This document shows positions 3,847-59,381 of a DNA stretch of 60,583 bases, one piece after another; the stretch's first letter is position 1, and each line of letters begins with the position of its first letter. Position numbers and translations under genes: made by a program. The stretch comes from Acidimicrobiia bacterium (GTDB taxonomy: Bacteria > Actinomycetota > Acidimicrobiia > Spongiisociales > ZC4RG35). The notes under the pieces were generated by a model. The model was not told the DNA's origin. It did no database searches and saw only the letters and a list, made by a program, of their open reading frames with translations. Location: NCBI GenBank assembly GCA_035281425.1, contig DATEDX010000124.1:1-60583 (forward strand), given 5' to 3'.

Positions 3847-3940
3847 CTACCTTTTCTACCCGGCCTCCGTTCCGGAAACGTTACGGAGATGGCTGCCTCG
3901 CCGGGTGAGGCCCAGCGACGTTACCGTTACGAACCGGCTC

Positions 3941-6670
3941 ATGGTGGAAAAGTCGTCACGTCTGTCTATAGCTCTGCTGGGGCCACCGGTGGTGACGGTG
4001 GGACGGGACCCGCTGGTGGTGGACACTAAGAAAGCAGTGGCTCTGCTCGCCTACTTGGCGGTGGAAGAGAGCCGCCCCAGCCGGGATCAGCTGGTCGACT
4101 TGCTCTGGAGTGAATCCGATGTCGAGCGGGGCCGGAGCGCCCTTCGCCGCACCCTCTCGGCTCTTCGCACCGGTTTGGGCGGGGGCCGCCTCCAAGCCGA
4201 TCGGGATCGGGTGTGGCTGGAGAGGGCCGGGCTGACGGTCGACCTCGAAGAGGTCGACCGGCTGCTTCATCAGGACCACGGACATGCCGTGGACTTGGTG
4301 TGCCCCGACTGTGTGAAGCCGCTGCAGCGTGCGGCTCGGTTGCACCGGGGAACCTTCCTAAGCGGTTTTCAGATCAAAGCGGCGCGGGGTTGGGAGGAGT
4401 GGGTCAGGCAGGTGGAAGGAGAGCGCCGGCGAGTGAGGCAGTTGGTATACGACCGGCTCACCAGGGCCTACGCCGCGATCGAGGATTACCGGGCGGCGGC
4501 CCGGACCGCCGAGGAGCGGATCGCCGCTGACCCCTTGGACGAGGCTGGTTACCGGCATCTGATGCTGGCATTGGCCCACGCCGGAGATCGCAATGGCGCC
4601 CTTCTCGCCTATCGCAAGTGTGTCCAGGTGCTGGAGACCGAATTGGGGGTGGCGCCCTTGGAGGAGACGGACGACCTCAACCAGGCGATCCTGGCCTCGG
4701 ACCTGCCCCGATTCCCCGGAGTCCGCCGGAGACCGGCGGCCGAGGCAGTTCCCAGCCCCCGGCGAGACTTGCTCGGTCGTCGATCCGAGCTAGCCGAAGT
4801 CGAGACTCTGCTGGGGGAGGCGTCATCCGAGGGCCGGGTGTTGCTCATCAACGGTCCGGAAGGGATCGGCAAGACCCGGGTCCTCGATGAGCTGATCCAC
4901 CTCGCCCGACAAGGCCAGCGGGTGGTGGTAACGGGCCGGGGTTACGAGTCGGAGAAGGAGATGCCCTACGGGGTGGTCGCCCAGATAGTCGACGCCGCCC
5001 TGAGCACAGTCAATTTCCCACCTCGGGAGGTCCCCTCCTGGGTGCTGGCCGAGGTTTCCCGCCTGGCGCCGTCGCTGGGGGCGGCTCCCGCCCTCGAACT
5101 CGAACCGGGCCCGGCGGAGCGCCGGCTGGTCGAGGGGCTGAGCCGTTTTCTGATGGCCCTTCCTGCCGGCGGTGTGGTGGCGGTCGACGCTGTCGAGGCG
5201 GCCGACCCAGCCTCCCTGCAGGTCCTGGCCTATCTGGCCCGTCAATTCCATCAGACCTGTGGCTTGCTCGTCTTGAGCGGGCGCTACCAGGACCTGGCCG
5301 CCACTTCGGCGCTCCGCGCCTTGGCGAGCTCGGCGCCGAGTCATGTCCGCCATCTGGCTTTGGGTCCCCTCGACGCCGCCGCCACTGCCGCCCTCGCCCA
5401 AAGTCGTGGTCTGCCCCGACTCTCCCCGGAGGAGCTCATCCGGAGGACCGGAGGGATACCTCTCTATGTGGTGGGGGAGATCGACGCATCAGGAGAGGAG
5501 GCGGCCCGGGCCTCAGTGAGGAGACGCCTCGACCAGCTCTCCCAGTTGGGGATGCAGACGGTGTCGGCACTGGCCTTGGCTGAGAGGCCGGTCAACATGG
5601 AATGGCTGGAGCCGGTCAGCGGCCGCTCGGAAGAGGAACTGGTCACCGGGTTGGAGGAGAACATCCGGGCCGGGTTGGTCCAGGAGCTAGACGATGGAAC
5701 GGTCGACCTGAGCCACGACCTCGCCCGGCGCCTGGTTAAAGAACGAACCACCCTGGCCCGCCGGCGATTGCTGCATCGCCGGGCGGCGCAGGCTTTGGGG
5801 AGTGATCCCGCCCACGCCGCCTTGGCGGTGAGGCATCTACGGGAGGCGGGCCGAGAGGCAGAAGCGGCGCAAGCCGCGGTGCGTGCTGGCCAGCACGCCC
5901 TCAGCCTCTTCGCTCTTCGGGAAGCCAAAGACCATTTTGAGACCGCTCTGGCTCTGGGACCGGCGCAGCTGCCGCTGGTGCAGCGAGCCCTAGGCGACAT
6001 CGCTCTGCTGCAGGGACGGTTTGGCGAAGCACGTCACCACTTCGAGGCCGCCGCCTCGGAAAGCAGCGGCGCCGATCTGGCCCTGGTCGAGCACCGGCTG
6101 GGTGATGTCGCTCGCCGGGTGGGGGATTTCGCCGCCGCCCAGCTGCAGTTCCAACGGGCGGAACGGCGTCACCCCCAACCGGCCCGGCTCCTCGCCGACC
6201 GGGCCCTGCTGGCTCGCCGGCTAGGGCATTTGGAGGAAGCCCGCCGGTTGGCGGAGAGAGCCCGCCAGCGCGCCGTCGACGAGGCCGACCTTGCCCGGGC
6301 ACTGGGCTTGATTGGCATGTTGACCGAGGAGGCTGAGGAGGCGATCGCGCTGCTCGAACAGAGCCTCCAACGAGCCGGGGAAGATCCCACTCTCAGAGCC
6401 GCGGCCCACAACAGCCTCTCCTATGCGCACCAACGGGCGGGACACTTGGATGAGGCGTTGTTGGCTGCCCAGCGGGGACTCGATTTGGTGAGGTCGGTGG
6501 GAGATCGCCACCGCGAGGCCGCGCTACTCAACCGCCTGGCCGACGTTCTTCACCTCCAAGGTCGGGTGGAGGAGTCCAAGGAGGCCTTGCGCCAGGCGGT
6601 CGGGATCTTCTCCGATCTGCACACCGTCGAGGCGCCGGTTCCGGAGTTGTGGCTCCTCACCGAATGGTGA
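3941..6670 (+). CDS. SARP/AfsR-family transcriptional regulator (BTAD + NB-ARC-like P-loop + TPR)
   Basis: From ATG 3941: MVEKSSRLSIALLGPPVV...KKAVALLAYLA...LVDLLW (winged-helix/BTAD). Walker A: LLINGPEGIGKTRVLDEL. The Ala/Leu-rich C-terminus is TPR-like. The ORF-track start at 3746 overlaps the divergent gene and was trimmed. Confidence 0.85.
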   Translation: MVEKSSRLSIALLGPPVVTVGRDPLVVDTKKAVALLAYLAVEESRPSRDQLVDLLWSESDVERGRSALRRTLSALRTGLGGGRLQADRDRVWLERAGLTVDLEEVDRLLHQDHGHAVDLVCPDCVKPLQRAARLHRGTFLSGFQIKAARGWEEWVRQVEGERRRVRQLVYDRLTRAYAAIEDYRAAARTAEERIAADPLDEAGYRHLMLALAHAGDRNGALLAYRKCVQVLETELGVAPLEETDDLNQAILASDLPRFPGVRRRPAAEAVPSPRRDLLGRRSELAEVETLLGEASSEGRVLLINGPEGIGKTRVLDELIHLARQGQRVVVTGRGYESEKEMPYGVVAQIVDAALSTVNFPPREVPSWVLAEVSRLAPSLGAAPALELEPGPAERRLVEGLSRFLMALPAGGVVAVDAVEAADPASLQVLAYLARQFHQTCGLLVLSGRYQDLAATSALRALASSAPSHVRHLALGPLDAAATAALAQSRGLPRLSPEELIRRTGGIPLYVVGEIDASGEEAARASVRRRLDQLSQLGMQTVSALALAERPVNMEWLEPVSGRSEEELVTGLEENIRAGLVQELDDGTVDLSHDLARRLVKERTTLARRRLLHRRAAQALGSDPAHAALAVRHLREAGREAEAAQAAVRAGQHALSLFALREAKDHFETALALGPAQLPLVQRALGDIALLQGRFGEARHHFEAAASESSGADLALVEHRLGDVARRVGDFAAAQLQFQRAERRHPQPARLLADRALLARRLGHLEEARRLAERARQRAVDEADLARALGLIGMLTEEAEEAIALLEQSLQRAGEDPTLRAAAHNSLSYAHQRAGHLDEALLAAQRGLDLVRSVGDRHREAALLNRLADVLHLQGRVEESKEALRQAVGIFSDLHTVEAPVPELWLLTEW

Positions 6671-37986: not shown

Positions 37987-38858
37987 CCGGCGTGATCCAG
38001 GTAGCCATCCTCGGCCTGGCCCTGGGTGGGGTTTATGCCCTCATGGCCTCGGGGCTGACTTTGATGTTCGGAGTGATGCGAGTCGTCAACCTCGCCCACG
38101 GTGCTTTCATGATCCTGGCCGCCTATGGCGCCTTCTTCCTCTGGCAGTTGTGGAACATCGACCCCTTTGTGTCGCTGGTGGTGGTGATGCCGGCGATGTT
38201 CGGGTTGGGGATGCTGATCTACCGCTCGCTCTTCACCCGGATCGAGGCTTCTCCCCGCTACCCGGAGATGACGGTTTTGATGACCTTCGGGCTGGCCTTC
38301 GTGGTGGAGGGGCTGATGAGCTACTTCTTCACTGGGATCTTCCGTACCGCTTCCCCGCCTTATGCGACCCAGGCCTTCTTGTTCGGGCCTTTCTTCGTGC
38401 CCCGGGGCCAGCTTTTCGCCTCCATGGCCAGCGTGGTGTTGCTGATTTTGCTGTGGGTCTTCTTGACCTTCACCCGTACCGGCTACGGGGTGCGGGCGAC
38501 CATGCAGAACCGCACCGCGGCCCAGATCGTCGGGGTGGACGTGCGCCGGGTGTCGATGATTTCGTTTGGGGTGGGGATGGCGCTGGCCGGCGGGGCCGGG
38601 GCCCTGATCAGCTTCCTCTTCACCTTCTTTCCCAACCGGCACTGGCAGTGGATCGCCATCATGTTGTCCCTCATCGTCCTCGGCGGCATGGGGAGCCTCA
38701 AAGGGGCGGTGGTGGGCGCCCTCGCCCTGGCCGTGATCGCCTCCTTCGTCAGCGACACTCTGGGGTCTCTATGGGCCCCGATGACCTTCTTCCTGGTCCT
38801 TTTCCTGGTGCTGCTAGTACGGCCCCATGGGTTGTTCGGAAAGAAGGTCCGCCTGTGA
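37983..38858 (+). CDS. livH: Liv-type ABC transporter permease (LivH-like)
   Basis: ILGLALGGVYALMASGLTLMFGVMRVVNLAHG. ATGA overlap with livF. Confidence 0.9.
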   Translation: MTGVIQVAILGLALGGVYALMASGLTLMFGVMRVVNLAHGAFMILAAYGAFFLWQLWNIDPFVSLVVVMPAMFGLGMLIYRSLFTRIEASPRYPEMTVLMTFGLAFVVEGLMSYFFTGIFRTASPPYATQAFLFGPFFVPRGQLFASMASVVLLILLWVFLTFTRTGYGVRATMQNRTAAQIVGVDVRRVSMISFGVGMALAGGAGALISFLFTFFPNRHWQWIAIMLSLIVLGGMGSLKGAVVGALALAVIASFVSDTLGSLWAPMTFFLVLFLVLLVRPHGLFGKKVRL

Positions 38859-39871
38859 CTGCCGAGCCCACCACCGTCGCCCTCCCTCCCAGCCTGGAGC
38901 CGGTGGCTGACGGTCGTGGGACCCGCCGGATCTTCATCACCATCGTCGTGCTGGCGCTGGCATTGGTTCCGGTGGCCCGTTTCCTCCCCGCCTACAACTA
39001 CATCCTCCAACTGGGAATTTCGGGGCTGATGTGGATTGCCCTCACCTCCAGCTGGAACATCCTCGGTGGTTACACCGGCTACATCTCCCTCGGTCACAAC
39101 GTCTTCTTCGCCATCGGCGGCTATCTATCGGGAATGCTGCTCGTCTATCAGGGGCTGTCACCGTTCCTGACCGCGGTGCTGGGTGGGGCGCTGGCCTTTT
39201 TGGTCGGCCTGGTGGCTGGACTGATCACCCTCCGCACCCGGGGACCTGCCTTCATCATCTCCACCGTGGCCCTGCTCTTGGTGATCACCCTCTGGCTCGA
39301 CAGCTGGGAGCTGGCAGGGGGTTCCAACGGGCTCAGCCTTCCCCTTCCTCCCTTCCCCATCCAATGGCTGAAGGTGCCGTTCTATTACGCCATGTTCGTA
39401 GCGGCGGTGGGAGCGGTGTTCCTTGGCTACCGGGTCCAGCACTCCAAACTGGGCCTGGCACTGCGGGCCATCGCCCAAGACGAGGTCAAGGCCGAGGTGG
39501 CAGGGGTGAATACCCGCCGGCTCAAGATCCTGGCCTTTGCCCTCAGCGCCTTCTTCCCAGGTGTGGTGGGGGCGATCTTCGGCTACAACCTCAGCTACAT
39601 CCGCCCCACCGTCTTCCTCATTATCGGGGTGGCGGCGCAGATGGTCTTGATGGCCATCATCGGCGGGCGGGGTACGGTGGCCGGCCCCGTGATCGGAGCC
39701 GTGCTCATCGTCGCCCTCAACGAGCTCTCGCTGGTCTACTTCGGAGCCACCGAGCTCAACATCGTCATCACCGGAGCCATCATGATCGTGGTCTTGTTGT
39801 TTTTCCCCGGGGGGATCGTCGGCTACCTACGGGAGAAAGGAAAGCTCCCCGCCATCCTCGACTGGGACTAA
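38855..39871 (+). CDS. livM: Liv-type ABC transporter permease (LivM-like)
   Basis: GTGA overlap with livH. LTSSWNILGGYTGYISLGHNVFFAIGGY. The long 5' extension in the track (from 37925) is an open-frame artefact. Confidence 0.85.
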   Translation: MTAEPTTVALPPSLEPVADGRGTRRIFITIVVLALALVPVARFLPAYNYILQLGISGLMWIALTSSWNILGGYTGYISLGHNVFFAIGGYLSGMLLVYQGLSPFLTAVLGGALAFLVGLVAGLITLRTRGPAFIISTVALLLVITLWLDSWELAGGSNGLSLPLPPFPIQWLKVPFYYAMFVAAVGAVFLGYRVQHSKLGLALRAIAQDEVKAEVAGVNTRRLKILAFALSAFFPGVVGAIFGYNLSYIRPTVFLIIGVAAQMVLMAIIGGRGTVAGPVIGAVLIVALNELSLVYFGATELNIVITGAIMIVVLLFFPGGIVGYLREKGKLPAILDWD

Positions 39872-39876
39872 CCACC

Positions 39877-39979
39877 TGCGCGGATTTTTCCGTCGCTACG
39901 ACGGAAAAATCCGCACGGAACCAGTCGACGGGTCCTTCCGTGCTGATTTTTCCGTGCCTGCCACGGAAAAGTCCGCGCA
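39877..39979. repeat. 103-bp triple-hairpin MITE-like element (copy B)
   Basis: tgcgcggatttttccgtcgctacgacggaaaaatccgc acggaaccagtcgacgggtccttccgt gctgatttttccgtgcctgccacggaaaagtccgcgca. It begins 6 nt after the livM stop, in a convergent spacer. Confidence 0.9.
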
Positions 39980-39995
39980 GACGTGTATGGCTCGA

Positions 39996-40691
39996 TTACG
40001 GCCCAAGCCTCACGGACACTTCACCGAGGGGCTCGATGGTGAAACTGACGAGATCCCCCGGTTCCAGAGCCAGCGGCGGGACCACCGAACCGCAGATCAC
40101 CACCTCTCCTGCCCGGAGGACCTCACCGAAGTGGCCAACCACCCGGGCCAGGTGAGCGATGACCTCGGCCGGAGGGCCGGTGAGTTGAAAGGAAAAGCCA
40201 CCCGCAGCGATCAACTCGCCGTCCTTCACCACCCGGATCTGTAAACCATCCAACCCCCCGAGCGACAAGGACTGTGGTTGGCCGAGGATGACGTATCGAT
40301 GGAAGATGTTGCCGGCCAAGATGACCTCGACCTCACCAGGAGGCGGATCCACGTCGGCCAGCTCCACCGCCGGCGCCAGCATTCCTACCGCCTCGCTCAC
40401 CTCGTCCACGGTGGCCCGTGGGGACAGATCCGAAGTGAGGTAGGCGGCCAGTTCCGGCTCGGCCACCGGCCGCGACCAGCCGGCGATGGAGACCTCACTT
40501 CCCGCCGCCACCAGCGAACGATCGGTGAGAAACCCGACCAGCGGGCCCTCCAGCGAGAACTGTGTCTGCGCCGAGGGTGCCCCGAACCCGGCCTTCCAGC
40601 CGAGGGGCTGCTCGCCTGCCGCCAGCCGATCCCTCCGCTGGGCCAGTTGCCGCCGCATTCCCTGCTCGACTCGGGGATCGAGCGAGTTCAT
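39996..40691 (-). CDS. 2-keto-4-pentenoate hydratase / FAH-family hydratase-decarboxylase-like protein
   Basis: From ATG 40691 (ATGA overlap with the cupin stop): GWKAGFGAPSAQ...GFLTD...EPELA...GEVVICGSVVPP. Confidence 0.65.
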   Translation of the reverse strand: MNSLDPRVEQGMRRQLAQRRDRLAAGEQPLGWKAGFGAPSAQTQFSLEGPLVGFLTDRSLVAAGSEVSIAGWSRPVAEPELAAYLTSDLSPRATVDEVSEAVGMLAPAVELADVDPPPGEVEVILAGNIFHRYVILGQPQSLSLGGLDGLQIRVVKDGELIAAGGFSFQLTGPPAEVIAHLARVVGHFGEVLRAGEVVICGSVVPPLALEPGDLVSFTIEPLGEVSVRLGP

Positions 40692-51604: not shown

Positions 51605-52591
51605 TTAGCCGGAGACCAGGCGGGCCGTCGTGGTGCGGACCAGAACCCCGTTCCAGTACCAGCGGCCTTGGATGGTTTGGTCCGCACGGAGAGTGAGCTC
51701 GGCTCGCCAGCGGCGGGTGGCGACGTTGCCGCTCTCCGTCACCCCGAGGTGGGTCACCCCCACCAGTTGCCCGTCCACTCGCAGCTCGAAACGGGTCGAG
51801 CCGCCGGTGAAGACCGACTCCTCATTACCGAGGTAGGGGAGCACCTGGTACCAGCCTTCGGTGAGGCGGTAGCGAGCCTGGGCGGAGACCGTCACATTGG
51901 CCGAACAGGTCAACCCGTTCTTGGCGCAGTTGTAGTCAACATGGTTGAGAGGAAGGACCCGCACCACCCCCGCCAGCTCGTAGGCCCGCGCCAGGAAGGT
52001 GGCCATCTCCGCTCGGGTGATGTTGCGGTCGGGGCAGAAGCGGTCGTTGGCGGGTGGATTGCAGCCCAGGGTGATCCCGGCCCGGGCGATCCGGTTGATG
52101 TCCCCCTCGAAGGTCGAGTTGTTGTCGTCGACGAAGAAGTCCTGGTTAGTACCGGCCAGATCGAGGGCTCGGGCCAGGAAGGCCGCCATCTGCCCCCGGG
52201 TCACGGTGTCGTCAGGACAGAAGCGGCTATTGGTGGGTGGGTTGCAGCCACGGGTGATTTCGGCTGCAGCCAGGCGGTTGATGTCACCTTCGAAGATGGA
52301 CGACCCGTCGTCGCTGAAGAAGTCGACTCCGGTCGGTGACAACTCCTCGGCCCGGGCCAGGAAGGCGGCCATCTGTCCCCGGGTGACGTTGTCGTTGGGA
52401 CAGAACCGATTGTTGGTGGGGGGATTGCAGCCTTTGGCGATGCCCTGGGCGGCAATGGCATCGATGGCCGATTCGTGGACCGAGGTGTCGTCATCGATGA
52501 AGGCACCCCGCACCGCCAGAGCCCCGGCGGGGAGCGCCGCCCCGGCCAGCATCACCATCCCCGCCAAAAGTGTGAGAACCCGCCGCTTCAC
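51605..52591 (-). CDS. secreted protein: signal peptide, three SLH-like repeats, C-terminal beta-rich domain
   Basis: Signal peptide: MKRRVLTLLAGMVMLAGAALPAGA. Three repeats of F.DD..S.FE.DI..LAAA.IT.GCNPP.N.RFCP....TRGQMAAFLARA, paralogous to 20366-21856. Confidence 0.75.
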   Translation of the reverse strand: MKRRVLTLLAGMVMLAGAALPAGALAVRGAFIDDDTSVHESAIDAIAAQGIAKGCNPPTNNRFCPNDNVTRGQMAAFLARAEELSPTGVDFFSDDGSSIFEGDINRLAAAEITRGCNPPTNSRFCPDDTVTRGQMAAFLARALDLAGTNQDFFVDDNNSTFEGDINRIARAGITLGCNPPANDRFCPDRNITRAEMATFLARAYELAGVVRVLPLNHVDYNCAKNGLTCSANVTVSAQARYRLTEGWYQVLPYLGNEESVFTGGSTRFELRVDGQLVGVTHLGVTESGNVATRRWRAELTLRADQTIQGRWYWNGVLVRTTTARLVSG

Positions 52592-53052
52592 GGGTCGATC
52601 TCCAAATGGGCCAGGACCTGCGCCACCGCCGGGACCAACTCGGCCCGGTCGACGAAGCTGCCGATCACCACGTAGAGGCAGAAGGCTCGCCCCGCCTCGG
52701 TGAAGAAGCGTTGCATTCCCCCCTGCCCGGCGATGGGACGTTGCAGCATCTCGCGGAGGAAGTCGCCCGGCACCGGGGCCCGAGGCAAACCTCGGGCGGC
52801 AAAGAGGGCGGTGGTGGCGGCGGCGGGAGAGAACTCCTTGAGGACGATGAGGATGTCGCCGGCACCCATACCTTCCACCACCGAGGAACCGAAGTCACCT
52901 CGAGCGGGGGGGAGAGGGAAGTTGGCGACATGAAGCACCGGAAAGCGTTCGGCCCCGTCGGCCAGCTGCAACGCCAGCCTCTCCCCCTCGATTGCTCCTT
53001 CCCAGCCGGCAGGAAGGTCGACCCTGATCCCGGCGCCGCTCAACGAGGCCAT
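52588..53052 (-). CDS. hypothetical protein (154 aa)
   Basis: ORF with normal composition. Its stop overlaps the downstream start (GTGA at 52588-52591), and its ATG is 1 nt after the upstream stop. Confidence 0.5.
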   Translation of the reverse strand: MASLSGAGIRVDLPAGWEGAIEGERLALQLADGAERFPVLHVANFPLPPARGDFGSSVVEGMGAGDILIVLKEFSPAAATTALFAARGLPRAPVPGDFLREMLQRPIAGQGGMQRFFTEAGRAFCLYVVIGSFVDRAELVPAVAQVLAHLEIDP

Positions 53053-53053
53053 C

Positions 53054-53626
53054 TCAACCCACCAGTCCCAATATGGCGACGATCACCAGCAGCACCCCGG
53101 TGGCGGTCCGGGCGGGCGGCCCCAGCCGGCGCATCAGACGGTGAAAAGCGGTGAGCCGGCTGGGCCGGTCGATCCAGCCGGCCGCCAGCGGGGCCAGGGC
53201 TCTGCCCGCTCCGAACACAGCGCCGATCACCGCGCCGGCGATGGCGCTACCTGCCAGCAGTTCGACTAGATAGACGGCGTAGACGCCCCAGGTGACGACG
53301 AAGGTGGCTGCGCCCAGACCCAGCTGGGCTCCGAACCCCGCCCCATATACCCAGCCCCGGTACTGGCCGATCCAGCGCTCGTTTACCTGCCGGGCGGGAC
53401 CAGGTGGGGCCACCCGGGTCAGGTCGAGGAGCCCGGCCACCAATGCCACCGCCACCAAACCCCATCGCTGAGCGGTCTCTCCCAGCGGCAGCCAAGAGCC
53501 GACCCATCCCAACCCTGCGCCGACTGCTGCCCCGGCGGCGACCGCGGCCAGGCTGTAGGCGGTGACGGTGATCACCCATCGGTTGTGGCGGGCCCGCTCC
53601 CCGAGCGGGTGGATGCTGGACAGCAT
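53054..53626 (-). CDS. integral membrane protein (190 aa, no Cys)
   Basis: Five to six Gly/Ala-rich hydrophobic segments. GGAGAG lies upstream of ATG 53626. Confidence 0.55.
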   Translation of the reverse strand: MLSSIHPLGERARHNRWVITVTAYSLAAVAAGAAVGAGLGWVGSWLPLGETAQRWGLVAVALVAGLLDLTRVAPPGPARQVNERWIGQYRGWVYGAGFGAQLGLGAATFVVTWGVYAVYLVELLAGSAIAGAVIGAVFGAGRALAPLAAGWIDRPSRLTAFHRLMRRLGPPARTATGVLLVIVAILGLVG

Positions 53627-54412: not shown

Positions 54413-55744
54413 TCATCGCTCCAGTCGGTGCCAGACGACCGGCCGGTCGCCCGTCTGGCCATGGGTAAAGGTGAGCAGGGTTCCCGACCCATCGACTTCG
54501 TTGGAAACCCTCCAGGTGCCGTCGTCGAACCGGCCCGGGGTGTCCACTCCATCGGCGTCCCAATCGCCCACCACCGGAATGTCCCCGGCGTCCCCGAAGG
54601 TGAAGTCGAAATCGGCGCTTCCTGCCGAAAGTGAGTTCCGCAGCAGCCACCGGGTGCCCCTCACCACTCCGTAGCCGTCGACTCCGTCGCCGTTCCAGTC
54701 GCCCACGACCGGAATGTCGCCGGGCTGGCAGAAACTGCAGGTGAAGTCGATGGCGGCGGTGCCCGGTGAGTTGTTGTTGCGTAGCAGCCAACGGGTTCCC
54801 CGCACCACCCCGATCGTCTCCACCCCCTCCCCGTTCCAGTCACCGACCACGGGGATGTCACCGGGGCTGCCGTAGGGGACGATGAGGTCGGGGTCGCCAG
54901 CTCCTTCGATCTGTCGCAGGTACCAGGTGGGGCCACTGCCAGAGATGCCGTGGCGGCTGCCCCGCACCACCCCCGCCGTGGCCACTCCCGCCCCGGTCCA
55001 ATCGGCGGCGAGGGGGGTGTCTTCGGCCAGTCCGTAGGTGAATTGGGTGACCGGGGCCGAGCTGGAGGTGCCTTCTTTGAGGAGCCAGGTGTTGCCCCTC
55101 ACCACCCCCGGCCGCGCCCGGTCGGCGCCCACCGAGGAGTCGGTGACCAGACAAGCTGCGAAGTGGGTGCGGGTGGCGTCTTCCCGGGCGTCTTCGTTGG
55201 TGCAGGTCGAATCCCATTCGAAGGGAGGGACACAGGTGACCACCCGGCAGATGATGGGGCCGATACAGTCGATCCACTGGTTGCACTGGCCGTAGCGGAA
55301 GCGGGTGCAACAGGTCCGCCAGTTGTTGCAGGTGTCGTCGTGGCAGTGACAATCGCAGTTGACGCAGCCGTTGCCGCAGGTGCCACTACCTCCGCAGCTA
55401 CACCCTCCGCAACTGGCCGGGTGACAGTCCATGAAATACCGGGAGCCTCCCCCGCAGAAGTCGTCGTCGCCTTCGGCCCGCCACCAGCCTCCCACCACCG
55501 ACCCGGGAGGGCAGGTGTTGGTGCCGTGAACCTTGCAGCACAACTCGGTCCAGGAGTTGCACCGGGAGTTGGTCGAACAGTCATCGGGCACCACCGCGGC
55601 GTAAGCCGTCACCGGCCGCAAGAGGTAGGTGAGGGGAGCGGTCATCACCGCCGAACCGGCAATGGCCATTCGGCGCAGGAATCCCCGGCGAGAGGTGCGG
55701 CTGGCCAGCGCCTTGCTGGCTGCTTCCACCAGACGGACGCTCAC
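54413..55744 (-). CDS. Tat-signal protein: 24-Cys MauA (methylamine dehydrogenase light chain)-like domain fused to about five FG-GAP/VCBS repeats
   Basis: Tat signal: SRRGFLRRMAIAGSAV...AYA. Then CNSWTELCCKVHGTNTCPPGSVVGGWW...FMDCH... and CSCGGSGTCGNGCVNCDCHCH. Repeats: GDIPVVGDWNG.GV...GVVRGTRWLLRN. GTGA overlap with the MauE-like stop. Confidence 0.75.
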   Translation of the reverse strand: MSVRLVEAASKALASRTSRRGFLRRMAIAGSAVMTAPLTYLLRPVTAYAAVVPDDCSTNSRCNSWTELCCKVHGTNTCPPGSVVGGWWRAEGDDDFCGGGSRYFMDCHPASCGGCSCGGSGTCGNGCVNCDCHCHDDTCNNWRTCCTRFRYGQCNQWIDCIGPIICRVVTCVPPFEWDSTCTNEDAREDATRTHFAACLVTDSSVGADRARPGVVRGNTWLLKEGTSSSAPVTQFTYGLAEDTPLAADWTGAGVATAGVVRGSRHGISGSGPTWYLRQIEGAGDPDLIVPYGSPGDIPVVGDWNGEGVETIGVVRGTRWLLRNNNSPGTAAIDFTCSFCQPGDIPVVGDWNGDGVDGYGVVRGTRWLLRNSLSAGSADFDFTFGDAGDIPVVGDWDADGVDTPGRFDDGTWRVSNEVDGSGTLLTFTHGQTGDRPVVWHRLER

Positions 55745-56259
55745 GTACTGGCGCTCCGGGCTCGCCTGGTCAACAAGGGGAGCCGGGTGAGGAGAAGAAC
55801 CAAGAGATAGGTGGCGAGACCCAGATAAAAGAGATAGGGGAGGCCGGCGGCCGGCTGCTGACCCAGCACCTCAGCCAGGTCCACCCCTCCCTGGGCGGCC
55901 AGCGCCAGGGCTGCCGCGGCGGCGGTGAGGTTGACCGTCAGGTGGAGAAGGGTGGGAGGGGTGTCGGCACGGCCGAAACACCCGCAGGACTGGAGGGGGA
56001 GGTGCCGGTAGAGGGCGATCCCGACGAACCCGGCGAAGGAGGCGTATAACAGCCCGACCGCGAGGACCCCGGCGACCATCCCCCAGAGTCCGGCGAGGGC
56101 CGCTCCCACCTCGATGAGTCCCAGCAGAAGTACCACCAAGGTCGAGGAGGGAAGACCGGCCGCGGCCAGGGCGCCCCGGGTCGGCTGCGGATCCCGGACT
56201 TTGGCTCCCCCGCTTAGTGCCAGGAGGGCAGCGGTGACGAAGAACCACCCCTCGAGCAT
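55741..56259 (-). CDS. MauE/DoxX-family redox-associated membrane protein
   Basis: From ATG 56259: MLEGWFFVTAALLALSGGAKVRDP...LQSCGCFG (the CGCFG motif typical of MauE). Four TM segments. Confidence 0.7.
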   Translation of the reverse strand: MLEGWFFVTAALLALSGGAKVRDPQPTRGALAAAGLPSSTLVVLLLGLIEVGAALAGLWGMVAGVLAVGLLYASFAGFVGIALYRHLPLQSCGCFGRADTPPTLLHLTVNLTAAAAALALAAQGGVDLAEVLGQQPAAGLPYLFYLGLATYLLVLLLTRLPLLTRRARSAST

Positions 56260-56308
56260 CGGTGAGGGCAGGCTAGTGGTGCCCAGCACGGACACCCATT
56301 CCCCACAG

Positions 56309-57796
56309 TTAGGTCCGGCGAACTGAGTAGTAGCGCGAGACGATCCGTCGCCGTCGACGCCGGTAGCGATTGCTGGCGCCGGCCAGCACATGTTCGACCG
56401 GCGGGCCTTGCCGGATCATCTCCCCGGTCACCTCCGAGCCGAGGTAAAGCGGCTCGACCGTCCCCGAGCTTTGGGACCACTCGGTCACGATCTGGACCGG
56501 CAACTGATCCGCTTTGTCGCCGTAGGTGGGGCGGCCCAACAGGCGGCGAAGACCATTGGTAACTCGGGGACCGAGGAGACGTTTGACGGCTTCCCGCCCA
56601 GCACTGGCCGTCAGGTGGGTGGCTTCCCGCAGGCTGCTCCCCGGCGCCGGTCGGAACGTAGCCGCCTCCTTCACCAGCAGGTCGGCGGTCTGGGCGGCCC
56701 CTCCCCTGAGGTTCTTCGGGGGTACCTCGGTGCAGGCCTCGATGAGGTCACGGCGTACCACCGGATCGGCCAGGGAGCTGGTCAGCGAGGCCAGCAGGTC
56801 GGGTTGGTCGGCCCGGGCCGTCAGGGCCAGACCGCGGTCCGCCAGCCATTGGGCTCGGGCCTCTTGGTCGTCGGTGAAGGTGACCGGGTTGGGCACAAAC
56901 AGGGTGGGAAGAGCGGCGGGAATGAATTCGTGGACGGCGTTGTACCCGGCGGCGCTGATCACGGCATCGAAGGCAGCCAGGTAGCGAACCAGGGGATAGA
57001 CCCCCTTCAGTTCGACGATCCGCTCCGGGTCGAGCACCGGCACTCCCTGGAGAGCGATGCTGGCCTTAGTGAGGCAGATCTGCCAGCGTGGGTCGGAGAG
57101 CAAGGTGCGAAGGACCACGGTGGCCGGTTCCGTGATGTCGCCCAGCCGTCCCGAGCCGAGAGTGACCAGCACGGTGAGGCGCTCGGGGTCGAGTCCCAGA
57201 GCCCGGGCGGCTTCCTCGCGGGGGAGAGGCTCGACGACGTCGAGCATGGTCACCGGCGACACCTTGACGGCATCGGTGAGGCCGGCGGTGGCGCCTCGAT
57301 CGGCCTCCGCCGCCAAGTCCCCAGGCTCGATGATCAGATCGAAGACCTCGCCCCGACCCAACCGGTCGCGGTGTTCGCCCGGCCGCCACAAACCCCTTCG
57401 CATCCAGGTGAAGTGGACCCGGGGCAGGCGTGGCCGGGCCCGTATAAGTCCCGGGTAGGGCGCCACCCCGTCGAAGAGCAGCGCTTCGGCCTTGGTCTCC
57501 TTGGCGATCGCCACCAGTCGGTCGCACAGATAGGAATGCCAATGGGCACCTTTCACCCATTGCCGGTCGGACCCGGGGCAATATTCACCAGGAACTTCTC
57601 CGATCACCGCCGGCAGACCCAGGGAGAGGGAGAAGAGGGTGGAGGTGGCCCGCTCCTGACCGGCCATAGCGATGGCGAGTTGACGGGTGAGGTGTCCCAT
57701 GCCCCAGCCGTTGCTGGTCACGAGCAGCAGACGGGTCTTGTCCTCACTGCCCGGCATGCGACCGCTCATCACTGGCCCTTCCGTAGAATTGTCCAC
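56309..57796 (-). CDS. GT-B glycosyltransferase (GT28/MurG-like C-terminal domain) with C-terminal extension
   Basis: LLLVTSNGWGMGHLTRQLAIA; VLVTLGSGRLGD...YLAAFDAVISAAGYNAVHEFIPAALPTLFVPN. The start is uncertain (GTG 57796, ATG 57769 or ATG 57757). Confidence 0.7.
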   Translation of the reverse strand: MDNSTEGPVMSGRMPGSEDKTRLLLVTSNGWGMGHLTRQLAIAMAGQERATSTLFSLSLGLPAVIGEVPGEYCPGSDRQWVKGAHWHSYLCDRLVAIAKETKAEALLFDGVAPYPGLIRARPRLPRVHFTWMRRGLWRPGEHRDRLGRGEVFDLIIEPGDLAAEADRGATAGLTDAVKVSPVTMLDVVEPLPREEAARALGLDPERLTVLVTLGSGRLGDITEPATVVLRTLLSDPRWQICLTKASIALQGVPVLDPERIVELKGVYPLVRYLAAFDAVISAAGYNAVHEFIPAALPTLFVPNPVTFTDDQEARAQWLADRGLALTARADQPDLLASLTSSLADPVVRRDLIEACTEVPPKNLRGGAAQTADLLVKEAATFRPAPGSSLREATHLTASAGREAVKRLLGPRVTNGLRRLLGRPTYGDKADQLPVQIVTEWSQSSGTVEPLYLGSEVTGEMIRQGPPVEHVLAGASNRYRRRRRRIVSRYYSVRRT

Positions 57797-57798
57797 CC

Positions 57799-58620
57799 AT
57801 GACCCTCCCCGCCCCTGCTCCGGTCTATTACTCCCGGCGCGTCCGCCTCTACCTGGCGGACCTGTGGAGCAGGCGGGATTTTGCCTGGTTCCTGGCCATG
57901 GGCAACGTCAAAGCTCGCAACGCCTCCACCGCCCTCGGGCTCCTGTGGTGGGTGATCAACCCCTTGCTGCTCGGATTGGTCTACTACTTCGTCTTCGGGA
58001 TCCTCTTTGAGAGTGCCCGTGACATCTCCTATCTGCTCACCGGGATGTTCGTCTTCCACTTCACCAGCCAGGCGATGAGCGGCGGCGCCAACAGCATCCT
58101 CCAGAACTCGAAGCTCCTCGCCAATCTCAAATTCCCCCGTCTGATCCTGCCCATCTCCAACCTGATCGAGGCCACGGTCGGCTTCCTCGCTTCCTTGGTG
58201 ATCCTCTACGCCATCGCCATTCCGTTCAGCGGCATCTTTCCCGGCCCCTCCATCGTGTTGTTGTTGATCGCCTTACCGCTGCAGTTGATGTTCAACCTAG
58301 GGCTGGCCGCCATCACCGCCCGGATGGCGGTCCCCTTCCGTGACATCAACAACCTGCTGCCCTACGTCAACCGGGTCTGGCTTTACCTTTCGCCCATCAT
58401 CTGGCCGCTTGAGTTCCTCAGCCGGATGTCTCCCACCGTGCAGACCATCGCTGAGATCAATCCCATGTTCCCCATGATCGAGGTGTACCGAGCGGCCCTG
58501 CTTGGTTATCCCCTTGACCTCACCCATCTGGCCTGGTTCGCCTTCTGGGCGGTGGCGGTTCTCATCGTCGGGATCGCCCTCTTCGTCAAGTACGAGGGAC
58601 AGATCGTGAGGTACCTGTGA
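57799..58620 (+). CDS. ABC-2-type polysaccharide/teichoic-acid exporter permease (Wzm/TagG-like)
   Basis: LWSRRDFAWFLAMGNVKARNASTALGLLWWVINPLL, six TM segments, and PMFPMIEVYR near the C-terminus. Confidence 0.85.
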   Translation: MTLPAPAPVYYSRRVRLYLADLWSRRDFAWFLAMGNVKARNASTALGLLWWVINPLLLGLVYYFVFGILFESARDISYLLTGMFVFHFTSQAMSGGANSILQNSKLLANLKFPRLILPISNLIEATVGFLASLVILYAIAIPFSGIFPGPSIVLLLIALPLQLMFNLGLAAITARMAVPFRDINNLLPYVNRVWLYLSPIIWPLEFLSRMSPTVQTIAEINPMFPMIEVYRAALLGYPLDLTHLAWFAFWAVAVLIVGIALFVKYEGQIVRYL

Positions 58621-59381
58621 GCCGTCCCGCTCTCTACGTCGAGAACCTCAGCGTCCGCTTCCGGCCCTACATCGACCGCAAGCCCACCTTGCGCAAGTCG
58701 ATCAACCGCTTCCGGGCCCGGGAACAGGTGGAGGTGGTCGCTCTCGACAACGTCTCTTTCCAGGTGGCGAAGGGCGAAGCCTTCGGGATCATCGGTCGCA
58801 ACGGGGCCGGCAAGAGCACTCTGCTCAGATGCCTGGCCGGCACCCTCCGCCCCAACTCCGGGAAGGTGGTGATCAACGGCCGCACCTCCACCCTCCTCCA
58901 GCTGGGGGTGGGCTTCAACCCCGAGCTGTCCGGGCGCCGCAACGTTTACCTGGGAGGTCTCGCCGCCGGCCTCCGCAAGAGACAGATCGACGAGCTCTAC
59001 GACAGCATCGTTGAATACGCCGAATTGGAGGACGCCATCAATCGTCCCCTGAAGACCTACTCCTCGGGGATGTTCTCTCGCCTCGCCTTTTCGGTGGGCA
59101 TGCACCTCGACCCCGACATCCTGCTGCTGGACGAGGTGCTAGCGGTGGGGGATCTCGGTTTTCGGGACAAGAGCATGCAATCGATGCAGGACCTGCTCGA
59201 TCGCAGCGGCACCATCGTTTTCGTGTCTCACAGTCTCGGCAGTGTCAAAGACTTCTGCGATCATGCGATCTGGCTTGAGCAGGGGCGTGTCCGGGAAGCG
59301 GGTCAGGCCGCGGAAGTCGTAGACGCCTATGAGGCGCACTCGAGATCCAAGAAGACCGAGGTGAAGGTCAACAATAAGTGA
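58617..59381 (+). CDS. ABC-type polysaccharide/teichoic-acid exporter ATP-binding protein (Wzt/TagH-like)
   Basis: Walker A: GRNGAGKSTLL. Signature: YSSGMFSRLAFS. Walker B: ILLLDEVLAVGD. The start overlaps the permease stop. Confidence 0.9.
   Translation: MSRPALYVENLSVRFRPYIDRKPTLRKSINRFRAREQVEVVALDNVSFQVAKGEAFGIIGRNGAGKSTLLRCLAGTLRPNSGKVVINGRTSTLLQLGVGFNPELSGRRNVYLGGLAAGLRKRQIDELYDSIVEYAELEDAINRPLKTYSSGMFSRLAFSVGMHLDPDILLLDEVLAVGDLGFRDKSMQSMQDLLDRSGTIVFVSHSLGSVKDFCDHAIWLEQGRVREAGQAAEVVDAYEAHSRSKKTEVKVNNK

Follow-up and report, generated by a model that had tools for sequence, protein, structure and literature searches.

We analyzed a 60,583-nt stretch of DNA from an Acidimicrobiia bacterium (assembly GCA_035281425.1, contig DATEDX010000124.1, positions 1 to 60,583), hereafter called the window, and focused on a minus-strand gene whose product is extremely rich in cysteine (Cys). 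The gene is part of a conserved, translationally coupled minus-strand operon, and its product is composed of a twin-arginine leader, a Cys-rich domain and a repeat tail (Table 1). Several of the adjoining genes resemble genes of the mau cluster, to which the light chain (MauA) of methylamine dehydrogenase (MADH) belongs. The third-position GC content of the Cys-rich gene (0.82) is typical for genes of the window, which has a GC content of ~65%.

A preliminary description of this locus compared the protein with the MADH light chain. The open reading frame (ORF) and the twin-arginine signal (SRRGFLRR...AYA) that it described are both found in the sequence, and so are all of the strings that it quoted (CNSWTELCC, GTNTCPPGSVVGGWW, YFMDCH, CNNWRTCC and CNQWIDC). 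Its count of 24 Cys is correct for residues 56-198, but only 23 of them lie within the interval of about 50-190 that it named. Two further Cys, C336 and C339, are located in the tail.

Table 1. Genes of the operon, predicted parts of the Cys-rich protein and Cys pairs that covary in its family
Feature	Position	Strand	Remarks
MauE-family membrane protein, predicted DsbB-like disulfide oxidase	55741..56391	minus	Operon position 1; PF07291, E=3.4e-14; CGCFG (CXC) motif
Cys-rich protein (HKX75250.1, deposited as 'hypothetical protein')	54413-55744	minus	Operon position 2; GTG start, 443 residues
MauA-type twin-arginine leader, residues 1-49	55598..55744	minus	Long n-region, SRRGFL, hydrophobic stretch, AYA (residues 47-49) cleavage motif
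Predicted disulfide-rich domain, residues 50-200	55145..55597	minus	24 Cys; invariant motifs; without known family or fold
Five-unit FG-GAP-like repeat tail, residues 201-443	54416..55144	minus	Predicted cell-wall-targeting module; repeat alignment
Cys pair C130-C145			Covariation r=0.97
Cys pair C132-C146			Covariation r=0.96
Cys pair C123-C127			Covariation r=0.94
Cys pair C62-C134			Covariation r=0.93
Membrane-anchored thioredoxin-like protein, 236 residues	53701..54411	minus	Operon position 3; N-terminal membrane helix, single CxxC (GCLPC); MauD analogue, predicted DsbA-like partner of MauE
MauF-like/DsbD_2-like polytopic membrane protein	53054..53626	minus	Operon position 4; PF13386 DsbD_2, E=4.6e-4, under the curated cutoff
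154-residue protein, no evident signal peptide	52588..53052	minus	Operon position 5; conserved; without family
SLH-domain protein	51605..52591	minus	Operon position 6; PF00395, E=2e-13; ends the cassette in its subclade

Conservation of the operon

The stop codon of the mauE homologue overlaps the start codon of the Cys-rich gene as GTGA, and the ATG of the thioredoxin-like gene lies 1 nt past the TGA of the Cys-rich gene. We compared this arrangement with 81 other loci, namely 80 loci fetched with 7 kb on either side from one-genome-per-species GTDB contigs, nearly all of them from Acidimicrobiia or other Actinomycetota, and one additional locus (L001); several of the loci were incomplete. 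Counting genes that kept their strand and order, we found the thioredoxin-like gene in 77 of the 81 loci (78 of 82 with the window) and the gene for the 154-residue protein, always downstream of the Cys-rich gene, in 76 (77 of 82 with the window). A MauE homologue was present upstream of the Cys-rich gene in 64 of the 81 loci and a MauF-like gene in 51. A homologue of the SLH-domain protein directly downstream closed the cassette in 32 of the 82 sequences, the window included. In L001, which is situated on a 2.36-Mb contig, the five-gene core surrounds a free-standing Cys-rich homologue of 207 residues. The counterpart of the 154-residue protein in this locus shows 43% identity to that of the window, and the sixth gene encodes a PD40/Tricorn-like protein in place of the SLH-domain protein.

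We also examined the helper proteins for the features of their presumed Mau counterparts. The CGCFG motif is found in the window MauE and in 56 of 63 cassette orthologues, and a single CxxC motif in 78 of 81 thioredoxin-like orthologues. The thioredoxin-like protein of the window aligns with MauD of Paracoccus denitrificans (BLASTP, 23% identity over 127 residues, E=2e-5), and one of its orthologues gave a weak match to Thioredoxin_2 (0.029). When the P. denitrificans proteins were used as tblastn queries, MauD matched the thioredoxin-like gene in seven loci, MauE gave matches in three, and MauF matched the membrane-protein gene in 31-34 loci, the best match showing 38% identity over 160 residues (E=4e-13). 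MauF has a role in light-chain biogenesis, as mau mutants indicate. We considered the possibility that the MauF-like protein is a thiol relay of the CcdA/DsbD type, and rejected it because most of its orthologues contain no Cys. The 154-residue protein showed no match in Pfam, NCBIfam or the PDB; conceivably, it serves the long leader as a chaperone in the cytoplasm.

Other components of the MADH system were not found. The tblastn searches with P. denitrificans MauB, MauG, MauJ and amicyanin gave no match in the 81 loci or in the 60-kb window, and MauA gave no match in the 81 loci. General family scans of the cassette genes also revealed no radical-SAM or peptidase family comparable to QhpD and QhpE of the quinohemoprotein amine dehydrogenase (QHNDH) system.

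Two observations were made on individual proteins of the cassette. The SLH-domain protein of the window contains three repeats, each with the motif G-C-N-P-P-x-N-x-R-F-C-P, and behind them a C-terminal domain without assignment. In addition, a single gene call of 624 residues (P0049) joins MauE, the leader, the Cys-rich domain and the repeat tail, and represents either a true fusion or a missed stop and start at the usual 4-nt overlap.

The Cys-rich domain

A word-indexed search with the Cys-rich protein returned 20 relatives, most of which are ~205 residues long and consist of the leader and the Cys-rich domain. An exhaustive search with a hidden Markov model (HMM) detected 466 representative clusters at E<=1e-3, mostly of 250-740 residues with the Cys-rich domain at the N-terminal end, and a pattern scan of species genomes identified at least 574 loci. 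Members of the family are publicly named 'hypothetical protein', and the NCBI name of one member is 'twin-arginine translocation signal domain-containing protein'. Neither Pfam nor NCBIfam showed a match over the Cys-rich domain of the window protein, and none of 100 family members carried a Pfam domain over this module. Searches of the PDB with the Cys-rich protein, both by phmmer with the single sequence and by hmmsearch with a profile, were empty.

Several motifs are invariant or nearly so across the family, including N-x-C-P-P-G, G-W-W-(K/R)-A, R-Y-Y-x-D-C, F-R-Y-G-Q-C and C-R-V-V-T-C-x-P-P. The invariant residues other than Cys are N76, W87, W88, R102, D106, F149, R150, Y151 and R167, and their likeliest role is to make up a surface that binds a ligand or is reactive.

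The number of Cys per domain ranges from 16 to 28 across the family, and 126 of 160 members have an even number. Moreover, the variable Cys are gained and lost as pairs (r=0.93-0.99; Table 1). Because of the even counts and the pairwise covariation, we consider that these sequences indicate disulfides, predicted to number about 12 in the window protein, and not metal sites. This reading agrees with the CGCFG motif of MauE and with the single-CxxC thioredoxin-like protein encoded in the cassette.

The structure of the domain was predicted with AlphaFold2 (AF2). An alignment of 17 sequences gave an unusable model with a predicted local distance difference test score (pLDDT) of 47, and an alignment of 72 sequences gave a confident one (pLDDT 90.9; predicted template modeling score 0.86). 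In the latter, residues 82-90 (SVVGGWWRA), 102-109 (RYFMDCHP) and 166-170 (CRVVT) are predicted to form a three-stranded sheet, which is accompanied by irregular, Cys-stapled loops. Foldseek comparison of this model with 350,542 PDB chains gave no match (best E=5.3; template modeling score <=0.14), a result to be read with the insensitivity of Foldseek to small irregular disulfide-rich folds, and no match was found in BFVD. The Cys-rich proteins are a widespread, unannotated actinobacterial family for whose domain of ~150 residues the PDB gave no fold match.

The repeat tail

The preliminary description assigned about five repeats of the FG-GAP/VCBS type to the C-terminal part of the protein. 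The repeats themselves are present: the tail of ~240 residues is composed of four complete repeat units and a truncated one, of 39-54 residues, with three copies of GDIPVVGDW and four of VVRG. However, Pfam recognition fails, as the FG-GAP/VCBS models gave no match to the window tail even at E<=10. The label appears to hold by transitivity, through a single related protein (P0021) whose tail aligns with that of the window (BLASTP, E=7e-15) and which matches FG-GAP_3 at 1e-15. Another protein, P0112, matches a profile of the FG-GAP/VCBS group at 7.5e-4. A profile search of the PDB with the tail yielded nothing useful.

The same description proposed that these repeats provide the Cys-rich domain with its own propeller partner, in an undescribed architecture. 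The partner role could not be supported, and the fusion is not unique. The architecture of a Cys-rich domain followed by five repeats recurs in ~35 of the 80 fetched loci, and in other members of the family the C-terminal slot is occupied by different modules. Among 100 members, it carried LGFP repeats in 24, FG-GAP_3 in four, CWB2 in three and SLH in two, and ricin, tectonin and B-lectin domains in one each. Conversely, a profile of the tail detected at least 3,881 proteins that carry the repeat module, mostly fused to peptidoglycan hydrolases. The fusion partners confirmed by Pfam are NlpC/P60, CHAP, M23, glucosaminidase, GH25 lysozyme, Rpf-like transglycosylase, CAP, subtilase, beta-lactamase-family and GGACT domains.

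Because the slot is variable within the family and the module is fused to wall hydrolases elsewhere, the tail is, as far as these comparisons indicate, a portable module of the kind typically found on secreted proteins that act on the wall. The simplest reading is that of a putative anchor to peptidoglycan or a wall polymer, and not of a partner subunit of the Cys-rich domain. On the same grounds, we rejected the possibility that it is a dedicated analogue of the MADH heavy chain. Given that Pfam mostly misses this module, which is very common in actinobacteria, it may deserve a family definition of its own.

Comparison of the leader and the mature domain with MauA

The leader contains the features of a substrate of the twin-arginine translocation (Tat) pathway, namely a motif of the type S/T-R-R-x-F-L-K, a hydrophobic region and an AxA site, and its RR-x-FL core is conserved in at least 90% of the family. 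The TIGR01409 Tat-signal model scored 14.9 bits on the window protein, just below its cutoff of 16.7. We compared the leader with MauA by three approaches, in which the P. denitrificans MauA query was 100% identical to the annotated gene. First, hhalign of the leader against MauA leaders gave a probability of 94.9% (E=4.6e-8). Second, ~970 kb of fetched DNA, translated in six frames into 9,096 ORFs, was scanned with an HMM of MauA leaders, and each of the 21 best-ranked ORFs was a member of the Cys-rich family. Third, BLASTP aligned residues 5-43 of the window protein with residues 10-48 of P. denitrificans MauA at 31% identity. Judging from these results, the leader of the Cys-rich family is specifically MauA-like.

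The mature domain behaved differently. We used an alignment of 10 sequences of MauA and its counterpart in aromatic amine dehydrogenase (AADH), including a divergent ORF from Thermomicrobium. With the full-length Cys-rich protein, hhalign reported a probability of 93% (E=2.5e-7), but the matched region extended from the leader to the CPPG motif only. With the mature part, the probability was 1.4%, and it rose to 3.6-5.5% with deeper alignments that included MauA of the Thermomicrobium type; in every case the match was confined to 11-15 columns at CPPG. Thus, bridging through the divergent Thermomicrobium-type MauA did not bring the mature domain above 5.5%. The score of 20.1 was marginally above chance, the maximum among 40 column shuffles being 18.2. 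The MauA family PF02975 matched neither the window protein (E<=0.1) nor any of 100 family members (E<=1e-3), whereas the divergent Thermomicrobium-type MauA proteins do match it. In the Foldseek search, no chain of MADH, AADH or QHNDH was among the PDB chains matched by the model, and searches of PDB sequences, profiles and folds gave no match between the Cys-rich protein and the QHNDH gamma subunit (QhpC). The mature domain could not be confirmed as a homologue of the MADH light chain.

The residues that make up the tryptophan tryptophylquinone (TTQ) cofactor in MADH were also considered. The invariant W87 and W88 follow CPPG by 5-6 residues, compared with seven for beta-W57 in MauA; their placement is compatible with that of beta-W57, but the alignment there is not significant. 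W142 and W157, the Trp residues of CNNWRTCC and CNQWIDC, had been put forward as candidates for the second TTQ tryptophan (beta-W108, in NDxxWC). We rejected both because they are variable in the family. The C-terminal half of the domain contains no conserved Trp, and in a low-stringency alignment the column facing W108 is variable. Furthermore, the light chain is characterized by twelve Cys in six disulfides, and the numbers found here (24 in the window, 16-28 in the family) differ from this.

The suggested parallel to the MADH light chain thus holds for the leader and for the MauE, MauD-like and MauF-like helpers, and is not supported for the mature domain. As judged from sequence comparison, the connection with the Mau system is genuine where the leader and the maturation genes are concerned. 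From the same comparisons and the predicted model, the domain itself is not demonstrable as a relative of MauA. A deeply diverged core shared with MauA, consisting of the CPPG hairpin with its Trp and the Y-x-DC strand, may exist, since Foldseek performs weakly on small irregular folds.

During this analysis, we observed an unannotated, divergent MauA-like ORF on a plasmid of Thermomicrobium roseum (NC_011961.1, ~3860-4315 of the fetched locus L009), in which both TTQ tryptophans are kept. Its relatives carry PF02975, and it is located just upstream of a 597-residue protein annotated as MauE/DoxX family. This locus looks like an unrecognized MADH-like system in Thermomicrobiota.

Other features of the window

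Directly upstream of the cassette, the region 56309-59381 encodes a GT28-like glycosyltransferase on the minus strand, followed by a divergent pair of ABC-2 permease and ATPase genes, and looks like a unit for the export of a wall glycopolymer. The strongest AT skew of the window was observed at 38001-40000 (-0.287 in a 2-kb bin, compared with +/-0.16 elsewhere).

Discussion

We propose that the Cys-rich protein is a wall-anchored, disulfide-rich domain that serves as the dedicated client of the Mau-type oxidative-folding cassette around it, and we give this explanation a probability of roughly 65%. The precursor would be exported by its MauA-type leader and cleaved after AYA. On the outer side of the membrane, MauE, with its CGC site, would serve as a quinone-linked oxidase of the DsbB type and would re-oxidize the CxxC protein analogous to MauD, which in turn would introduce or shuffle the disulfides of the client. 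The MauF-like protein and the 154-residue protein would assist, possibly by handling the leader or the unfolded client, and the five FG-GAP-like repeats would tether the folded module to peptidoglycan or another wall polymer. This explanation builds on what was observed here, namely a conserved gene order, a leader similar to that of MauA, Cys patterns that point to disulfides, a modular tail and a domain that matches no known fold; from these we infer the specificity for this client, its binding to the wall and a role for the patch of conserved residues. With regard to the enzymes, it has been reported that MauE replaces DsbB in Escherichia coli by means of a CXC-FG active site, which the CGCFG motif found here matches, and that only ~10% of the MauE-bearing species in the dataset of that study have MauA (bioRxiv 10.64898/2026.03.05.709764). 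MauE and MauD are established participants in the biogenesis of the light chain (van der Palen et al. 1997, cited by later papers).

Several points weigh against this proposal. The Tat pathway normally exports folded proteins, which is awkward if the disulfides are formed after export; the same puzzle exists for MauA. The MauF-like protein is free of Cys in 31 of 53 orthologues. Pfam is blind to two of the components: the thioredoxin-like protein of the window gave no direct match in Pfam or the PDB, and the tails of 17 orthologues gave no FG-GAP match at E<=0.01. The binding of the tail to the wall is deduced from its fusion partners. Finally, the invariant aromatic and charged residues exceed the needs of a purely structural knot, which leaves room for catalysis or a cofactor.

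This last point brings in the possibility that the domain is a diverged homologue of MauA with a protein-derived quinone or a cross-linked cofactor, and acts as a cell-surface dehydrogenase, for amines or other substrates, that has no separate heavy chain. In this case, the invariant W87/W88 that follow CPPG would be the basis of the cofactor, and D106 would play the part of beta-Asp76 of MADH. The MauA-type leader and the many invariant aromatic and charged residues are consistent with this possibility, and MauE, MauD-like and MauF-like genes flank the gene as mauF, mauE and mauD flank mauA. Low-stringency hhalign also gives a collinear alignment with MauA, in which CPPG-x5/6-W is opposite CPPG-x7-W57, RYYxDC opposite AYRDCC, and the hydrophobic C-terminal CRVVTC opposite HCTVSVVVG, and the mature score exceeded all 40 column shuffles. 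However, the probability of this alignment is 1.4-5.5% with a confident part of 11-15 columns, PF02975 is missing from the 100 members examined but kept by the divergent Thermomicrobium-type MauA, and the model retrieves no MADH, AADH or QHNDH chain. In addition, no conserved Trp corresponds to W108, W142 and W157 are variable, the Cys number is 16-28 and not 12, and MauG, MauB, amicyanin and MauJ are encoded in none of the 81 loci. In the preprint dataset cited above, ~90% of the MauE-bearing species likewise lack MauA (bioRxiv 10.64898/2026.03.05.709764). We therefore regard such a homologue of MauA as improbable.

A secreted antimicrobial or a product resembling peptides that are made by the ribosome and modified after translation (RiPPs) also seems unlikely. 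Here, the domain would be a disulfide-knotted warhead after removal of the leader, the tail would target the walls of competitors, and the operon would provide maturation and possibly immunity. The decRiPPter study flagged mauE/mauD clusters of Streptomyces beside precursors with at least eight Cys as candidate RiPP families (PMC7794033). In the same direction, the tail module is common to many peptidoglycan hydrolases, some of which are possibly lysins, and the cassette contains small conserved proteins without an assigned role. On the other hand, a domain of 150 residues with a 240-residue tail is far above the typical RiPP size, and no conserved gene of a protease, exporter or immunity type was found in the cassette. 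The SLH, LGFP and CWB2 anchors of paralogous architectures suggest that the protein is kept on the wall of its own producer. Bacteriocin loci are expected to be patchy and fast-evolving, but the Cys-rich family is nearly universal in Acidimicrobiia, where its synteny is conserved and its invariant motifs evolve slowly.

A more far-reaching form of the MauA hypothesis, which we consider quite improbable, is that the domain branched off from the MADH light-chain lineage long ago, makes a new protein-derived cofactor and serves Acidimicrobiia as an extracellular redox enzyme tethered to the wall. For example, a quinone or cross-link could be formed on the GWW pair together with the FRYGQC tyrosine or a nearby Cys, without MauG or a heavy chain. 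Lastly, binding of a metal or Fe-S cluster to the Cys-rich module in the cytoplasm, followed by Tat export of the folded protein for redox or metal-storage purposes, might be suggested by the leader type, which is typical of cofactor-containing exports, by the very high Cys density and by the superficially metal-motif-like CxC/CxCxC runs (C130-x-C132-x-C134), but we reject it as very unlikely because Cys counts are even and the variable Cys change in pairs, not in threes or fours, and, in addition, the neighboring genes encode a MauE disulfide oxidase and a thioredoxin-like protein with CxxC, no ferredoxin-type or metallothionein match was found in the Pfam and PDB sequence searches, and the AF2 model is confident without a ligand.

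Returning to the proposal of a dedicated, wall-anchored client, the MADH light chain is to our knowledge the only established client of MauE, MauD and MauF, and the only known bearer of its long twin-arginine leader. The Cys-rich family would be a second, unrelated-looking client with the same type of leader and the same helpers, across hundreds of actinobacterial species; therefore, the roles of the MauA leader, MauD and MauF would become testable by comparison. The Cys-rich protein would also be a natural substrate, in Gram-positive bacteria, for the recently proposed MauE disulfide pathway. Furthermore, two unannotated modules are defined here, namely a domain of ~150 residues with 12 predicted disulfides, and a very common, predicted wall-targeting repeat that Pfam largely misses.

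Comparison with known systems

The family shares with MauA (PF02975) a long twin-arginine leader whose n-region is conserved, followed by a small, secreted, disulfide-dense domain in which CPPG precedes a Trp-bearing strand and a Y-x-DC strand. As in the mau cluster, MauE, a MauD-like CxxC protein and a MauF-like membrane protein are encoded in adjoining genes. Unlike MauA, the mature domain has no detectable homology beyond CPPG and no fold match, contains 16-28 Cys compared with 12, lacks the second TTQ tryptophan and carries a C-terminal module predicted to bind the wall. The MauB heavy chain, MauG, MauJ and amicyanin of the mau cluster are not encoded nearby. The Cys-rich family occurs in Actinomycetota, mainly in Acidimicrobiia, and not in Proteobacteria.

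The cassette also resembles the MauE pathway described in the preprint (bioRxiv 10.64898/2026.03.05.709764), where MauE with a CXC-FG site is independent of MADH and is paired with a CxxC protein of the thioredoxin fold. In the present case, the pathway is not a stand-alone generalist, since MauE shares its operon with a single specific client of extreme Cys content and with two more conserved proteins. The term 'Actinomycetota' was not found in the main text of that preprint, and its available passages do not describe this client family. The Streptomyces clusters reported by decRiPPter (PMC7794033) are similar in that homologues of mauE and mauD lie beside a Cys-rich precursor in Actinobacteria while other mau genes are absent. 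Compared by description, they differ in that they have predicted short precursors with at least eight Cys, and not a 150-residue domain with a wall anchor.

With respect to FG-GAP/VCBS proteins, the tail shows the signature (F/Y)G ... GD-x-P-x-x-GDW-(N/D)-G-D-G with a period of ~45 residues, and related tails match FG-GAP_3. The tail of the window differs from them in that it lies below every Pfam threshold and has five units only. It also behaves as a portable module, probably targeted to the wall and shared with peptidoglycan hydrolases, and not as a scaffold for a catalytic subunit.

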